Positions 328 through 6,803 of a DNA stretch of 6,803 nt are shown one piece after another. The notes beneath the pieces are model-generated. The model saw only the letters and a program-made list of their open reading frames with translations. It was not told where the DNA came from and did no database searches. This DNA is from Candidatus Woesearchaeota archaeon (lineage in GTDB: Archaea; Nanobdellota; Nanobdellia; Nanobdellales; Nanobdellaceae). The translations under genes and the position numbers were made by a program. The stretch covers positions 1 through 6,803 of the forward strand of contig CAYXSZ010000083.1 in the NCBI GenBank assembly GCA_964468425.1, in the 5' to 3' direction. Within the stretch, counting starts at the first letter, position 1. Each line of letters begins with the position of its first letter.

Positions 328-1968
328 TTATTCAAGGTCGTAGTCGCCTTCCTCGGAGCCTGGTCCTTTACTCTCGCTTTCTTCTTTCTTTACAGCTGCT
401 ATTACGTCATCTATCTTGAGAATCATACACGCAGCTTCTGTAGCTGACTTTACGGCTTGTGTTGTTACATTTGCTGGCTCCAGAACGTTTAGTTCCCACA
501 TATCTGCTACTTTTCCGTTGATCGCGTCGACTCCGTACCATATTTTTCCTTCTTCGTGTGCCGCTCTTAACTCAGCCATTACTTCGATTGTGTCCATACC
601 TGCATTTTCGGCTAGCGCGGAAGGTATTGCCTCAAGTGCGTCAGCGAAAGCTAGCATAGCTAGTTGGATCTTGGATGGGTGTCTTTTAGCTTCCTCTCTC
701 AATCTTCTCGCAAGTTCGATTTCGATAGCTCCTCCTCCTGCAATTACCTTTCCATATTTGATTACGGTAGCTACATCCTTGACTGCGTCTTGGATGGATC
801 TCTCAATTTCATCTGCTACGTGCTCAGAACCCGCTCTGATCAAAATTGTGACTGCTCTTGGATTCTTACATCCGGTTACGAATATCATATTTTCGTCTGC
901 AACCTTCTTTTCTTCTACAGCTTCAGCGTATCCTAAATCTTCTGGGGAGAGGTCGTCTATAGAGGTAACGATTTTAGCTCCCGTTGCTTTTGCGAGCTTT
1001 TCCATATCAGACTTCTTTACCCTTCTTACAGCGAGAATTCCATATTTAGCTAAGTAATGGGCAGCTAAATCGTCAATTCCCTTTTGGACAAACACTACAT
1101 TTGCTCCGACTTCTTTTATTTTATCTACCATTTGTTTAATCATTTCTTGTTCTTTTCTCAAGAAGGCTTCAAGTTGTTCTGGACTTGTAATGTTAATTCT
1201 CGCGTCTGTTTCGGTTTCTTTTACTTCTAGAGCATCGTTGATTAATGCAATCTTCGCTTCCTTGACAATTTTAGGCATTCCTGGGTGAACTCTTTCCTTG
1301 TCTATTACGATTCCGTCAATTAATTCGGTGTCCTCTATTCCTCCCCCTACTCGTTTTTCGATCTTGATAGCATCGAGGTCTACAATTACTCTATCGTCTT
1401 GTTGAGCGGTTACCTTCTTTACGGCATTTACAACGAGATCTGCGATCTTGTCCGCATACATTCCAGCTATCTTTGAAGACAAAGCGGATTTGGCTATTTT
1501 CTTAAGTGCTTCGGCATCGTCAATCGAAACGTCCTTCGCTATTTCGCTTACAGTCTTCTCCACAAACTGCATAGCTCTCTTGTAACCTTCTATAATGACT
1601 GTTGAATGGATGTTGTTGTCTAGCAAATCTTCTGCTTTTCTTAGAAGTTCTCCAGCGAGAACTACCGATCTTTTAGTTCCATCTCCAACTTCAGTATCCT
1701 GCGTCTTCGCGATCTCGATAATTAACTTCGCTGCCGGGTGCTCTACTTGCATTTCGTCTAAAATTGTGTATCCATCGTTTGTAACGATTATGTCTCCAAG
1801 CTCGTCAACTAGCATTTTGTCCATTCCTCTTGGTCCGAGGGAGGTCTTTAGGATTTCGCCAATGATGACCGCTGCCATGATGTTCGATCTCAAGGCGTCC
1901 CTACCTACGGTTCTTGCATATTTTTCGGGAAGTACCAAAATGGGATACAACGTTCTCTGCTCCGCCAT
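328..1968 (-). CDS. ths: Thermosome subunit (group II chaperonin, Cpn60/TCP-1 family)
   Basis: Long ORF with group II chaperonin motifs: [29 protein letters not shown].., [22 protein letters not shown]. The first M in the track (1986) is a TTG codon; ATGs occur at 1977 and 1968. The TATA box at 1990..1997 predicts a transcription start near 1968, so [15 protein letters not shown]... is the preferred N-terminus. The maximal ORF is 328..1986. Confidence 0.95.
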
Positions 1969-1989
1969 AGTATTCATATACAACAAAGG

Positions 1990-2623: not shown

Positions 2624-3019
2624 ATGGTGGAAATTCAGGTTAAAAAGATTGGAGAGTTGAAGCCCGGTAACTACATTTGGTACAACAACAAGGTTTACAA
2701 GGTCGTGAGTGTTGAAACTTCCAAGGTTGGAAAACACGGAGCTGCGAAGGCGAGGGTGGAAGCGGTCTCGTTTGACGGAGACAAAATTGTTCTAATTAAA
2801 CCAACTCACGATAACATTGATGTTCCAATGATAAAGAAGATCAAGGGTCAAGTAATATCCGTTCTTTCAGAGGATAGAGTCATGATTATGGATATGGATA
2901 CTTACGAGACCTTCGAGGCGGTGGTCAACGAAGACCTTCGCGGTAAGCTAAGTGAAGGTCAAAGAGTTGTAGTTTGGGATATTGGAGAGCGAGTTGTGAT
3001 GCAGGCGTTCAAGGATTAA
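2624..3019 (+). CDS. eif5a: Translation initiation factor 5A (aIF5A)
   Basis: 131 aa with the (deoxy)hypusination loop TSKVGKHGAAKA; the modified Lys would be K37 (2732..2734). IMDMDTYETFE and the overall length match archaeal aIF5A. Confidence 0.95.
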   Translation: MVEIQVKKIGELKPGNYIWYNNKVYKVVSVETSKVGKHGAAKARVEAVSFDGDKIVLIKPTHDNIDVPMIKKIKGQVISVLSEDRVMIMDMDTYETFEAVVNEDLRGKLSEGQRVVVWDIGERVVMQAFKD

Positions 3020-3624
3020 AAATCTGCTTTTGGCTCAATTTTAACAATTTTTCCATCTTTCAACCCCTCTAGAAAAGCTCTAAAATCTTCTAAAGTGTAT
3101 TTTAAACTCTCCTCGTAAACGTCGTTATACGTGCTCTCTAGAAGCGATATGTACTCTACCTCTTTCATCAACCTGTTGTATAAGTTTGTTCTCGTTTTTT
3201 CATAGAGCAGTCTAAACAACCTTCTTCTACCCTCATAATAATCTCTGAGGTCTTCAGACAATATCCTTTCGAACAATTCGTCTATTGCTTTGCTTACGGA
3301 GCTTTCCTTATCTTTTTCAAAACCGGGAATGGATAATGAAAATATCAAAAAGTTCTCATACACGTACTCTATTCCAAAGTACACATCGTACCCGATTCCG
3401 TACCTTTCGCGAATTGTTTGGAAGACTAAGGAAGAAGCTCCTCCGGAAACGAACTTTTCAAAAGCGCTGGCGAGGAGAAATTTATTCATAGGTACCTTGA
3501 AGTTCAAGGCAAAATAAACTTGGTTGTTCGTGTCCCTATGCTCTATTATATCTTTCCCTTTACCTACAGTTGGTTTCTTTTTTTGAAACTTCTTTTTCTT
3601 CCAAGTTTGAGAAGTATTTCTCAA
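3016..3624 (-). CDS. M16 peptidase, C-terminal half (Peptidase_M16_C-like); continuation of 3560..4231 in the +1 frame
   Basis: QVYFALNF...VSGGASSLVFQTIRERYGIGYDVY matches the M16 pattern (q.h..lg...LGGGmsSrLf..lRek.GLaYsvy) that normally follows the catalytic domain in a single polypeptide of about 400 aa. The 5' 65 nt overlap the upstream ORF. The ATG at 3624 is probably not a real start. Confidence 0.75.
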   Translation of the reverse strand: MRNTSQTWKKKKFQKKKPTVGKGKDIIEHRDTNNQVYFALNFKVPMNKFLLASAFEKFVSGGASSLVFQTIRERYGIGYDVYFGIEYVYENFLIFSLSIPGFEKDKESSVSKAIDELFERILSEDLRDYYEGRRRLFRLLYEKTRTNLYNRLMKEVEYISLLESTYNDVYEESLKYTLEDFRAFLEGLKDGKIVKIEPKADF

Positions 3625-4231
3625 CTAGTTCGATGTGCTTTTCTGAGAAGTCGCCTTCAAGCAAAATAAACATGTTCTTTGGAGTGTAATATTTGGCTTT
3701 GAACTCCTCTAGGTCTTCTTTAGAAGTGCTTTCTACAGTTTCTCTATAACCAGTAATTGGATCTCCGTAGTCGCTCTCTCCAAAAACAGCTTTTGGGATT
3801 AGCTCGCTCATCCTTTTTTCAGGATCATTATTATAGATCTCTAATTCAGATAAAACTACTTTCTTCTCGTTGTTAAATTCAGTTTCTTTATACTTTTCGT
3901 TTTCAAACATGGAATACAAGATGTCTAAAACCTTTGGAAAACCTTCCGGAATGACTTCTACTATGTAACAGGTTAAATAAGTACTTGTAAATGCGTTTAC
4001 AATCCCGCCATTTAGTTCTAAACCCATGTTTATTTGCTCAGCATCGTATTTATGGTTAGACTTAAACATCATGTGTTCTAGAAAATGCGATATTCCTCTC
4101 TTGTCTTTAGGTTCGTAAACACTCCCTATTTTCACTCCAATTGCGATGCCAACGGTGCTCGCGTCTGGAATTCTTAAAGTATACAATGTTAATCCATTGT
4201 CAAGTACTTTCTTTCCAAAACCATCGGACAT
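3560..4231 (-). CDS. M16 (pitrilysin-family) zinc peptidase, N-terminal catalytic half; truncated by a frameshift
   Basis: Inverted zinc motif HFLEH (4073..4087), followed by NAFTS..T.Y and the distal LSELE region, all typical of the Peptidase_M16 domain. The ORF ends 18 nt after an A7 run, and the reading continues in the +1 frame. Confidence 0.85.
   Translation of the reverse strand: MSDGFGKKVLDNGLTLYTLRIPDASTVGIAIGVKIGSVYEPKDKRGISHFLEHMMFKSNHKYDAEQINMGLELNGGIVNAFTSTYLTCYIVEVIPEGFPKVLDILYSMFENEKYKETEFNNEKKVVLSELEIYNNDPEKRMSELIPKAVFGESDYGDPITGYRETVESTSKEDLEEFKAKYYTPKNMFILLEGDFSEKHIELVEKYFSNLEEKEVSKKETNCR
3578..3584 (-). other. A7 homopolymer (T7 on plus strand) marking the frame change inside the M16 peptidase gene
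   Basis: Minus strand reads GTT TCA AAA AAA GAA ACC AAC TGT AGG TAA in frame 0. Removing one A gives GTT TCA AAA AAG AAA CCA ACT GTA GGT AAA, which joins the two halves. Confidence 0.6.
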
Positions 4232-4247
4232 CTCGAGTAATAATCTA

Positions 4248-5141
4248 TTACTCTTTTTTAACTTTCTTGCTGATCTCGTCCGCGATCCTTATGGGCTCGG
4301 GATATCTTCCCTTAATCCAGAACTCATCGCTCAACTCCTTGGCAGTTTCAACCGATACTTTGTGTCCCGGAGAAACATAAATCACATTTCCATATTTCTC
4401 TAAAACATGACCTATTAACTGGTTATTTTCATCGAAAATTCTGTTACCTTGAATTTTTCCATACAAATGCTTCCTTGTAACTCCGATCGTAGGAATGTCT
4501 AAAAGAACTCCGACGTAGCTGGCTAGTCCTAGTTTTACGGGATGCGCAACTCCCTGTCCATTTACAAAGAGGATGTCAGGAGCTTTTATCTTGTTAAACG
4601 TTTTTAGAATGGGTTCTCCTTCTCTAAAAGCTAAAAATGTTGGAATATATGGAAAAGTTACCCGCTCTTCGAAGACATAGTATTCTACTAAATTTAGTTC
4701 GTTATCCAAGAGAACGTAAACTACTTTAGCCTTATTATTTTTGTAACTTAGATCTACACCACCAATCAACTCTAACTTCGAGAAATCGTCTTGTAGTTTT
4801 AACCTTTTTGAAAGTTCTACTTGCATTTTTCTTAATTTCTCAAGGGGTTTTTCGCCAATCCTAAAGTCATTAAATAGATGCTTTTTTAAATTAACTTTTC
4901 CATTTACAATTTCAACACCTTCGCACTTCAGTCTAATTAACTGCTCTAAGTTTTTTATCTCTCCTTTTTCGTTTACAACCCTCCACCAAGGAATATCTGA
5001 ATGTTTTATAGCTTGGGCTACGAATCTGGTAGCATAAGGACTTCCTAGCGCTAAAGCTAAAGTTTTGAATGTGGTTACCTTACCTTTCGGAATTTGGAAT
5101 ATTAGGTCGCGTAAAATCCTGTTTACGTCCGGAAGATCCAT
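4248..5141 (-). CDS. nfi: Fusion protein: N-terminal alkyltransferase-like (ATL / MGMT DNA-binding) domain plus C-terminal endonuclease V
   Basis: Residues ~8-80 (IPKGKVTTFKTLALALGSPYATRFVAQA...IPWWRVVN..G....LKCEGV) match the MGMT/Ogt C-terminal domain pattern (IP.G.v.tY..iA...g.p.a.RaVg.A...iPCHRVv..G.....LL..EG). Residues ~95-297 carry EndoV motifs: GGVDLSY, PYIPTFLAFRE, NGQGVAHP, GLAS, PTIGVTRK, VSPGH. Confidence 0.9.
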   Translation of the reverse strand: MDLPDVNRILRDLIFQIPKGKVTTFKTLALALGSPYATRFVAQAIKHSDIPWWRVVNEKGEIKNLEQLIRLKCEGVEIVNGKVNLKKHLFNDFRIGEKPLEKLRKMQVELSKRLKLQDDFSKLELIGGVDLSYKNNKAKVVYVLLDNELNLVEYYVFEERVTFPYIPTFLAFREGEPILKTFNKIKAPDILFVNGQGVAHPVKLGLASYVGVLLDIPTIGVTRKHLYGKIQGNRIFDENNQLIGHVLEKYGNVIYVSPGHKVSVETAKELSDEFWIKGRYPEPIRIADEISKKVKKE

Positions 5142-5162
5142 TAAAAAGAGATTAAAGAAAAA

Positions 5163-5170
5163 TTAAAAAT
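5163..5170 (-). promoter_or_regulatory. TATA-like box (minus strand ATTTTTAA) for the ATL-EndoV gene
   Basis: Centred about 25 nt upstream of the ATG at 5141. No SD-like sequence intervenes. Confidence 0.35.
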
Positions 5171-5209
5171 AATGCCTGCAGATCTCTCAGTAACATTTAT
5201 ACATTCGAA

Positions 5210-5222
5210 AACGCGTCGCGTT
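5210..5222. repeat. 13-bp perfect palindrome AACGCG-T-CGCGTT
   Basis: Read directly from the sequence. It is a conspicuously GC-rich island in an AT-rich gap, about 40 bp upstream of the putative EndoV TATA box. Function unknown. Confidence 0.5.
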
Positions 5223-5444
5223 GTACTTCTCACATAACTCTGAATATTTTTTACATAAATTTATAACTTATTCCTTAGGGTTGACTCTTGAGAGGCTCGC
5301 AGTAGATTTTTTATGACAATAGATTTCGACGACTTATAGAGTATTCCTTTGATTTTAAGTAATGGCTCGAGAATTTGATCTAGCTCTGAACTAGAAATCT
5401 TCTTAGTTTCTGAATTAGCATTACTATCTTGTAAATCATGTAGA

Positions 5445-5478
5445 AAACAATTAATGTGAGTTTGAATTATGATTGTTT
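5445..5478 (-). terminator. AT-rich imperfect hairpin ending in a T4 run, downstream of the permease-NTase stop
   Basis: AAACAAT (5445..5451) pairs with ATTGTTT (5472..5478), and an inner TAAT/ATTA pairing is separated by a 2-nt bulge. On the minus strand the 3' arm runs into TTTT. AT-rich stems of this size arise easily by chance. Confidence 0.2.
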
Positions 5479-5524
5479 AGCTAGATAACTTGCATAATCT
5501 TAGGATATTACAAACAATTATAAC

Positions 5525-6803
5525 CTACAATGCGATATACTTTTTAATGGATTTTAAGATTTCCTCTTTCTCGTTTAACCTAAAGATGTGGACATCTATA
5601 GGATATTTCTGAAATTTGTGTAGAATCTCCTCAGCGAGCTGGACTGCGCTCTCATCATCCTTTACAAAAATCAAAAGATCTACATCGCTTGAAGACTCTC
5701 TTTCTCCTCGTGCTAGACCTCCCGCCAAGAAAACTTCTGAGCCAGGATACCTTTCAGAAACAAACTCTTTAATTTTTGGAACCCACGTCTCCCAAGAATT
5801 AATTAGCTTTTCTCTTTTCTCAAGACGAGTGTCGAGATGATATGCGATTTCTCTCTGAGCAAACTTCCTATATACAATCTCAATTATAAAAGCTAGGACA
5901 ATGGCGGATACAAAAACTATAACTCCAACTATATTAGTTTTAATATTTTTAGCTAAAAGAGTTATAAGAGCAACAAAAGAAAGAATTATAGAAGTTATAG
6001 ATAAATATTTGTTGATTTTTGCTTGTTTTCTTAATATGAAACCTGCGAGGTTCACTGAAAAAAAGATTAAGAGAAAACCTGCGCTTCCAATCAGCGAGAT
6101 CTCTTCTAAATTGAGTAAATTTGCTGAAAGAATTGAAATAAGAGAAATTATTATCAATCCCTCATAAGCTTGCTTCCAAACTTTTCTTTCTAAAGCTTCT
6201 GGAAGTTGACCGTATTTCGATATTATATAAGAAATTCCTACAGTTCCGAACAAAGTAGCATTGATTGCAGACGCTGTCGAAGCGAGAGCTGCGATGCTGA
6301 TTAAAACAAAACCTAGTTTCCCTAGTATTGGTTGAGCAACAGCTGCTAGTGCGTAGTCCTTCGCTTTTACAACTTGTTGAACTGGGAGAGCGCTAACCGT
6401 TACGATTGCTATTAAAATATAAAGAATAGTTACAAAAGTTATCGAAGCGTAAAAAGCTTTCGGAATGTCTTTCAAGTTTTTGGCTTCCGTTGACGCGTTT
6501 GCTATTAGCTCAAAGCCTTCATAAGCTAGAAATATGATCATTCCTCCGACCAGGACATTTAGAATATTTTGAGATGGTAAAAAATATGAAATAATGTCAA
6601 AGTTTTTCAAAGAAACTAATCCTGCGAGCGCAACTAAAGATAAAGCAATTAGTTTAAAAATAACTAGGGCATCTTCAGTTTTACCTGTTATGTATGCTCC
6701 GAGAGCGTTAATCAGCGTGAAAAACAGAATAATTCCAGTTATTGCTAAATGCTTGGGAATTCCCAAAAGAATACTTGCATATGCGCCAAACGCATACGAA
6801 TAC
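5525..6803 (-). CDS. APC-superfamily amino-acid/polyamine permease fused to a C-terminal minimal nucleotidyltransferase (pol-beta superfamily) domain; 5' end beyond the right window edge
   Basis: Multiple hydrophobic helices and FLAYEGFELIANASTEAKNLKDIPKA (compare the APC pattern f.G.E.....aeE.knP.k.iP.A). The last ~109 aa (5528..5854) are soluble and carry VFLAGGLARGERESSSDVDLLIFV (hG[GS]x9-13DhDh) plus a downstream IDVHIF. The M at 6766 in the track is a TTG codon. The frame is open to 6803 (YSYAFGAYASILL...), so the gene is truncated by the window. Confidence 0.9.
   Translation of the reverse strand, partial: YSYAFGAYASILLGIPKHLAITGIILFFTLINALGAYITGKTEDALVIFKLIALSLVALAGLVSLKNFDIISYFLPSQNILNVLVGGMIIFLAYEGFELIANASTEAKNLKDIPKAFYASITFVTILYILIAIVTVSALPVQQVVKAKDYALAAVAQPILGKLGFVLISIAALASTASAINATLFGTVGISYIISKYGQLPEALERKVWKQAYEGLIIISLISILSANLLNLEEISLIGSAGFLLIFFSVNLAGFILRKQAKINKYLSITSIILSFVALITLLAKNIKTNIVGVIVFVSAIVLAFIIEIVYRKFAQREIAYHLDTRLEKREKLINSWETWVPKIKEFVSERYPGSEVFLAGGLARGERESSSDVDLLIFVKDDESAVQLAEEILHKFQKYPIDVHIFRLNEKEEILKSIKKYIAL

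Follow-up and report, generated by a model that had tools for sequence, protein, structure and literature searches.

The window analysed here, by which we mean the whole stretch of 6,803 nucleotides of contig CAYXSZ010000083.1 from a Candidatus Woesearchaeota archaeon, ends in a minus-strand gene in which an amino acid transporter related to ApcT of Methanocaldococcus jannaschii is continued, in the same open reading frame (ORF), by a minimal nucleotidyltransferase (MNT) domain; we refer to it as the permease-nucleotidyltransferase (permease-NTase) gene. Its features, with residues numbered from the start of the partial protein in the window, are the following (TM, transmembrane helix):

5525..6803, minus strand: permease-NTase ORF; stop codon TAG at 5527..5525, 5' end cut by the window edge at 6803
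5858..6803, minus strand: ApcT-type transporter core, residues 1-315, roughly TM3 to TM12
6653..6655, minus strand: Lys50, equivalent to Lys158 of ApcT
6029-6031, minus strand: Arg258, in the cytoplasmic loop between TM10 and TM11
6016..6023, no strand: breakpoint within the TM10-TM11 loop, from which variant contigs of this population no longer follow the window
5852..5881, minus strand: motif EIVYRKFAQR at the end of TM12, residues 308-317
5528..5851, minus strand: C-terminal MNT domain, residues 318-425 (~108 aa), identified by NTP_transf_2, by its match to AF0614 and by fold
5783..5794, minus strand: W337-x-x-W340 in the first NTase helix, a hallmark of the family
5678..5722, minus strand: catalytic signature G361-G362-x10-D373-V374-D375 (GG-x10-DVD), encoding GGLARGERESSSDVD
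5588..5599, minus strand: I402-D403-V404-H405 (IDVH), with the third acidic position D403 and the near-invariant His405

The minus strand between 5525 and 6803 reads without interruption through transporter and MNT domain (425 codons in the translation of 5525-6802), as described in the initial annotation, which had proposed that one ORF joins an APC-type permease to an MNT-like pol-beta NTase; the Pfam domains of both halves score above their cut-offs. Compared with a 523-aa homologue (P0001), the window copy lacks ~99 N-terminal residues. The window end at 6803 and position 1 of another contig (L008) are the identical base inside the gene, which suggests that a repeat or strain-variation boundary lies just upstream and breaks assemblies. 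Around the junction of the two halves (5850..5900), where a stop or frameshift had been considered, we found neither: two independent JGI contigs, L009 (99.8% identity to the window, 6062->3900) and L010 (99.4% identity, 6023->1), carry the same frame across it, and the linker and tail are conserved across 66 aligned homologues. We are thus left with hardly any doubt that the protein is a fusion of an ApcT-type transporter and a minimal nucleotidyltransferase. That it is an artefact (a frameshift, a mis-assembly, or two neighbouring genes read as one) has a practically negligible chance: although the window stops within the gene and rearranged alleles exist in the population, the independent contigs and the conserved linker speak against it, as do ~100 homologues from isolates and metagenome-assembled genomes that show the same single ORF.

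The transporter half matches Pfam AA_permease_2 (PF13520) over residues 19-305 (E=8.4e-24; 84.7 bits vs a cut-off of 27), and residues 19-322 align to residues 125-430 of ApcT (MJ0609; 3GI9) with E=2.8e-49. We modelled the full-length structure on P0001, which is 61% identical to the window copy and has the first ~99 residues that the latter is without. P0001 aligns to ApcT (3GI9/3GIA) with E=4.9e-76 (residues 2-421 against 4-430); its AlphaFold (AF2) model has 12 TM helices (pLDDT 91.5, pTM 0.90) and superposes on 3GIA with a TM score, normalised to the target, of 0.92 and a root-mean-square deviation (rmsd) of 2.1 Å. Identity to ApcT (structures 3GIA/3GI9/3GI8) is ~36-37% over the entire 12-TM core. 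Lys50, in the stretch IFKLIAL opposite LVKLLIL of ApcT, is invariant in 67 sequences; its ApcT counterpart, Lys158, is implicated in proton translocation/coupling and lies at the position of the LeuT Na2 site (PMC12764776). The NCBIfam model TIGR00909 (2A0306 amino acid transporter subfamily) gave 106.6 bits vs a cut-off of 556.8, the query being partial and diverged, and we do not assign the protein to that narrow subfamily. As judged from these alignments, the transporter is an orthologue-grade relative of ApcT, itself a proton-coupled, broad-specificity amino acid carrier of the APC superfamily; some of the homologues are labelled "amino acid:proton symporter, ABT family".

The boundary between the halves can be placed with the help of ApcT. 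Both ApcT and the permease-NTase family close TM12 with the same E-x-x-Y-R-K...R motif (EIVYRKFAQR in the window protein, EIIYRKVTKR in ApcT), whose positions are highly conserved among the homologues (E308 67/67, Y311 61/67, R312 59/67, R317 65/67). ApcT ends a few residues past the motif, whereas the window protein runs ~108 residues further into the NTase; because ApcT's own C-terminus shares the motif, the motif belongs to the transporter and the appended part begins at about residue 318. The termini of ApcT are cytoplasmic. Since the transporter core is collinear with ApcT up to the C-terminus of the latter, and the homologue model has 12 helices, the tail should lie on the cytoplasmic side, the location that the initial annotation had assigned to it.

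The tail is recognized by Pfam NTP_transf_2 (PF01909) both within the whole protein (residues 342-422, E=1.2e-10; 42.0 bits vs a cut-off of 21) and on its own (E=9e-12, 45.6 bits), above the cut-off in both cases. The motif coordinates given earlier for it, 5678..5722 and 5588..5599, are exact, and the 109-aa tail delimited before at 5528..5854 corresponds to residues 317-425 of the partial protein. Its signature residues and third acidic position are likewise in place: the window copy carries all three acidic residues, D373, D375 and D403. Of the 67 aligned homologues, 64 share G361, 62 share D373 and 65 share D375, and the A-R-G-E stretch that follows GS is almost invariant; position 403 is Asp in 42 and His in 20, and H405 is found in 62. 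The tryptophans of the first helix are kept to a similar degree (W337 62/67, W340 64/67), and stand-alone relatives also have "W(R/K)xW".

Our AF2 model of the tail (pLDDT 89) retrieved, as its top Foldseek matches, 1YLQ, 2RFF, HI0073 (1NO5) and the MntA/MNT chains of HEPN-MNT complexes, with probability 1.00. The closest of these is AF0614 of Archaeoglobus fulgidus (1YLQ), which is the best match to the tail in fold (TM score normalised to target 0.75, rmsd 2.5 Å) as well as in sequence: a profile built from 30 tails (A2) matches it over its full length with E=3.4e-9, its strand "P-F-E-F-H" lies opposite "P-x-[DH]-x-H" of the family, and the C-terminal "KY..L" is also matched. AF0614 and SSO NP_343093 (2RFF) have GS..DxD, the P-x-[DE]-x-H strand and the C-terminal KY..L strand in common with the tail; they are soluble stand-alone proteins of ~96-111 aa, whereas the tail is attached to a membrane protein. 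The PDB titles of 1YLQ and 2RFF say "putative nucleotidyltransferase" only and name no function. GlnD, the [protein-PII] uridylyltransferase, was rejected as a match (13-19 bits vs cut-offs of 519-1299, the NTase core alone being matched).

A better characterized protein with the same fold and catalytic signature is MntA of the type VII HepT/MntA system (Shewanella SO_3166; 5YEP/7AER/7BXO). MntA AMPylates a tyrosine of HepT, using GSX10DXD and a third aspartate (D71); ATP and two Mg2+ ions are held by G27-S28, S38-D39-x-D41 and the third aspartate, while the partner HepT supplies part of the nucleotide pocket (PMC7641770). In the window protein, S372-D373-V-D375 and D403, the latter equivalent to D71, have nearly the spacing of the MntA site, including the preceding serine. 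We infer that the complete GG-x10-DVD plus D403 site binds ATP with two Mg2+ ions.

The fusion is widespread among heat-loving archaea and is also found in a number of bacteria. In a collection of 5.8 billion proteins, 3602 match at E<=0.001, and ~100 of the best 120 matches are 500-550 aa long and contain both PF13520 and PF01909. Fused homologues occur in cultured Archaeoglobus fulgidus, A. veneficus, A. sulfaticallidus, A. neptunius, Geoglobus acetivorans, Pyrodictium delaneyi and P. occultum, under source names such as "amino acid permease", "DNA polymerase beta domain protein region" and "amino acid transporter/predicted nucleotidyltransferase"; the nearest homologues (P0001, P0002, P0004) are just 55-61% identical to the window copy. 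A scan of species-representative genomes yielded 532 relatives, with a tail in the same ORF at 36 of the best 80 loci. The archaeal fused loci belong to Archaeoglobi, Desulfurococcales, Pyrodictiaceae, Acidilobaceae, Aeropyrum, Micrarchaeota and Hydrothermarchaeota, and the bacterial ones, which include several thermophilic groups, to Thermodesulfobacteria, Aquificota, Desulfurobacteriaceae, Desulfobacterales and Campylobacterota. This is an old and common architecture that automatic annotation already covers, and it is not new; the initial annotation, which did not recognize it and by implication took it for undescribed or rare, had set precisely such a finding against its own proposal, and this part of it has largely to be given up. 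Our literature search found no paper on the permease-NTase fusion or on the function of the tail.

The distribution falls into two kinds of tail. Archaeal tails, that of the window included, keep the catalytic residues. Bacterial tails retain the domain and the HHP turn, and several of them the ARGE stretch, with G-S and D-x-D replaced: DxD has become TLH, HIN, KLH or TLR in homologues from Thermodesulfobacteria, Aquificota, Desulfurobacteriaceae and Desulfobacterales (e.g., "DELARGER..HTLHL", "GNIAVKD..GHINL" and "GTLRV"), the GS and DxD residues are replaced in Campylobacterota too (loci of the five groups: L027, L031, L033, L034, L036, L037, L039, L041, L046, L049 and L072), and the same loss is seen in five database homologues (P0101, P0102, P0106, P0119, P0120). 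By its residues, the tail of the bacterial branch is a pseudo-nucleotidyltransferase. As these tails keep the domain without the catalytic residues, the domain has a role that does not depend on catalysis; the conservation pattern indicates that selection in archaea additionally preserves a complete metal and nucleoside triphosphate (NTP) site. A comparison of 89 catalytic-tail, 16 degenerate-tail and 45 unfused relatives yielded mostly clade-specific TM substitutions. Arg258 is present in 86 of the 89 catalytic-tail transporters and is conserved only in that group, not among degenerate-tail or unfused relatives, a hint that it may be a candidate contact between tail and loop.

To trace the ancestry of the tail, its profile was scanned against 1.84 billion representative proteins at E<=0.001. 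Among the 1411 proteins matched, the top ones, past a few fused representatives and fragments, are stand-alone MNTs of 105-125 aa that share with the tail the W..W first helix, GS...DxD and "HP-x-E-x-H"; HEPN-MNT fusions are also among the matches (P0159, P0178, P0199; Pfam HEPN E=1.9e-12 to 1.1e-26). A word-index search with the tail alone returned fragments of the same gene only and was uninformative on relatives. With stand-alone MNTs of the AF0614 type (~115 aa) and HEPN-MNT fusions as its closest kin, the tail derives from HEPN-associated MNT stock and looks like a domesticated component of toxin-antitoxin type; the captured toxin-antitoxin component that had been suggested for this locus fits such an ancestry.

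The surroundings of the gene offer no constant partner. When two ORFs on each side of the 36 fused loci were scanned with Pfam (125 ORFs), no family occurred in more than four of them, and the 25 most frequent families listed did not include HEPN; a HEPN that occurs once or twice could escape such a listing. The tail hidden Markov model (HMM) found no separate MNT gene beside the unfused relatives among the best 80 loci, and the copies of A. fulgidus, Pyrodictium and P0001 each sit among neighbours that bear no relation to those of the others. The window shows the downstream flank of the gene, the upstream one lying past the window end. In this flank the 383-nt spacer 5142-5524 has no wholly contained ORF of at least 40 aa, no Rfam family, no tRNA and no terminator, and the gene that follows is an endonuclease V (EndoV) fusion, not HEPN. 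PADLOC returned weak generic MNT matches only (PDC-S09) and no defence context.

In our view the tail is best explained as a module that regulates the transporter from the cytoplasmic side, probably one that binds ATP and Mg2+ and, in archaea, possibly one that AMPylates. We hold this combined reading at about an even chance and lean somewhat further towards its broader part, that the tail plays a regulatory role; that the window protein really performs nucleotidyl transfer is a tentative proposal that falls a little short of even. In the mechanism that we envisage, the tail would be held at the inner face of the ApcT-type carrier, and in archaeal tails the intact site would bind ATP and two Mg2+ ions; AMP, or another nucleoside monophosphate (NMP), would then be transferred to a nearby hydroxyl on the tail itself, on a second protomer or on a cytoplasmic loop of the transporter, and transport would thereby be tuned to the nucleotide or energy state of the cell. 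A minimal NTase by itself has an incomplete nucleotide pocket, and for MntA it is HepT that completes it; in the fusion this part would fall to the transporter face or to a second tail. The domain also has a catalysis-free role, e.g. in docking or oligomerisation. AMPylation, its target and its effect on transport are speculative parts of this scheme.

Carriers of related fold offer a precedent. The structural matches of the full-length model include NKCC1 and c-di-AMP-bound KimA, and in both a LeuT/APC-fold carrier is likewise followed by a soluble cytoplasmic C-terminal domain. The C-terminal domains of KimA and the cation-chloride cotransporters control activity or dimerisation. They show that an APC-fold carrier can have a regulatory tail; their fold is unrelated to pol-beta NTases and they are non-enzymatic.

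Several observations weigh against an AMPylating regulatory module. Our alignments and the group comparison revealed no conserved tyrosine, serine or threonine acceptor that is specific to the fusion: the aromatic position 322 in the linker is Tyr, Phe or His (His in the window protein), and Y311 is also present in tail-less ApcT. As no acceptor residue was identified, the catalytic step remains speculative. The third acidic position is His in ~30% of family members; the bacterial loss of all catalytic residues shows that the family can fulfil at least some of its function without catalysis; and some strains of the population have a disrupted copy of the gene, which is thus not essential there.

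A stronger form of the proposal, in which the tail would be catalytically active and, depending on the ATP level, would AMPylate the very transporter that carries it, on a cytoplasmic loop or on the other protomer, is rather unlikely. If it were true, the family would be a self-contained transporter with its own covalent-modification switch, domesticated from an antitoxin, and the bacterial members would represent a later pseudo-enzyme stage; we know of no described precedent for a self-modifying transporter of this kind.

Among the alternatives to a regulatory module with a working nucleotide site, the one that survives best, and that we regard as possible if somewhat unlikely, is that the tail is a non-catalytic appendage serving dimerisation, docking or nucleotide sensing without transfer, comparable to the C-terminal domain of KimA or to those of cation-chloride cotransporters. 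The bacterial tails and the five database homologues that keep the domain with every catalytic residue replaced argue for it, as do the regulatory C-terminal domains of other APC-fold transporters and our failure to find either an acceptor residue or a partner gene. Nanoarchaea, on the other hand, are a group with small genomes, and the site is kept even in this apparently reduced nanoarchaeal genome; together with the retention, in archaeal members, of G361, D373 and D375 (62-65 of 67 sequences) and of the ARGE stretch, this is hard to explain without metal and NTP chemistry.

It is quite improbable that the tail acts as a membrane-tethered antitoxin of MntA type, AMPylating HEPN RNase toxins, one or several, whose genes would lie elsewhere in the genome. 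Its closest relatives are the MNTs of HEPN-MNT modules and HEPN-MNT fusions, and MntA neutralises HepT by tri-AMPylation through GSX10DXD (PMC7641770). Unlike MntA, the tail is fused to a transporter and has no adjacent HEPN gene, either on the downstream side in the window, where the spacer holds no complete ORF of at least 40 aa, or among the families listed for the 36 genomes with fused loci; the NCBIfam MntA model (NF047752) gives 18.3-21.4 bits vs a cut-off of 60, and the degenerate bacterial tails would be incapable of such action. At one orthologous locus (L001), a separate MNT (127 aa) and a HEPN protein (139 aa, PF05168 E=4e-22) are encoded at 653-1422, 1.7 kb upstream of the permease-NTase gene. 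This pair might be taken to favour a tethered antitoxin; however, the HEPN there already has its own MNT, and the pair is for that reason probably an unrelated toxin-antitoxin module.

Still harder to sustain is the idea that the tail nucleotidylates the imported substrate, either to trap it (group translocation) or to detoxify an antibiotic-like amine. Aminoglycoside and lincosamide nucleotidyltransferases, which are also pol-beta NTases, match the tail weakly, and an enzyme would here be tethered where the transport path exits. Antibiotic NTases, however, require a second substrate-binding domain, which is absent from the tail, and the structural matches to them are partial (TM score normalised to target ~0.25); ApcT-type carriers transport ordinary amino acids, the bacterial members have lost catalysis, and the neighbour genes are unrelated housekeeping or metabolic ones.

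The Hailong system combines the nucleotidyltransferase HalB with a membrane effector. That the tail, like HalB, makes a small nucleotide signal such as an oligoadenylate to gate the attached membrane protein is scarcely credible, since the weak profile matches behind it (NCBIfam, E=4e-4; PDB 9DBJ/9DBH, E=4e-4) are limited to the generic GS..DxD core, with NF051895 scoring 17.3-20.1 bits vs a cut-off of 190 over model residues 4-38 only, and no defence-island context is seen.

For this window the outcome is mostly deflationary, the architecture being real yet common and already annotated. The family itself is of wider interest: MNTs are among the most abundant small enzymes of archaeal genomes, their best-worked-out activity is the AMPylation of HEPN toxins, and here an MNT has become a lasting cytoplasmic extension of ApcT, a transporter that is well understood. 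The complete catalytic site of archaea and the putative pseudo-enzyme of bacteria offer two stages for comparison; with cultured hosts (A. fulgidus, Pyrodictium) and the ApcT crystal structures at hand, the family provides a tractable system for the roles of MNTs outside toxin-antitoxin pairs and for the regulation of APC transporters in archaea.

The interrupted alleles mentioned above, from the same or a related population, diverge from the window at 6016..6023. L008 matches the window from 6803 to 6016 and then continues into unrelated DNA (L008 789-977) with a zinc-ribbon ORF that has a weak IS1595-type match; L010 begins with 1500 nt of unrelated DNA (1-1500), which encodes a 376-aa ORF without a Pfam match and a 147-aa ORF with a weak Zeta_toxin/P-loop match, and then follows the window from 6023 to 1. 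The sequence "GCAAAAA" flanks both junctions, and L009, from the same sample as L008, is uninterrupted. An uncharacterised insertion of at least 1.7 kb probably splits the permease-NTase gene in some strains.

Downstream of the AT-rich spacer, which separates the stop codon of the permease-NTase gene from the start of EndoV (L001-L003 have an overlap of 16 nt between these genes instead), 4248-5141 (minus strand) encodes a 297-aa protein with an O6-alkylguanine-transferase-like (ATL) DNA-binding domain (PF01035, E=1e-12) and endonuclease V (PF04493, E=6e-51), a fusion conserved in L001-L003. Active O6-alkylguanine transferases carry PCHR; at this position the PF01035 domain has "IPWWRVV", which gives it the look of an ATL-type domain that is non-catalytic and has been joined to EndoV. 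The 61%-identical orthologue shares the gene order permease-NTase, ATL-EndoV, aIF5A, kinase and thermosome.

An M16 peptidase gene is split into two overlapping minus-strand ORFs, 3016-3624 and 3560-4231, the first to be read giving 223 aa (M16, and M16_C profile positions 3-48) and the second 202 aa (M16_C profile positions 51-168), which implies that a frameshift lies near 3560-3624; ORF calling splits the gene in L010 in the same way, and the syntenic orthologous loci L001-L003 lack it altogether. The thermosome (328-1986, minus strand) shares 73-78% identity with its counterparts in Nanopusillaceae, Nanoarchaeota NZ13-N, Nanopusillus and Nanobdella, from which the host is probably a nanoarchaeon; one match of 84% is labelled Ignisphaera aggregans and possibly comes from a mis-binned symbiont contig.

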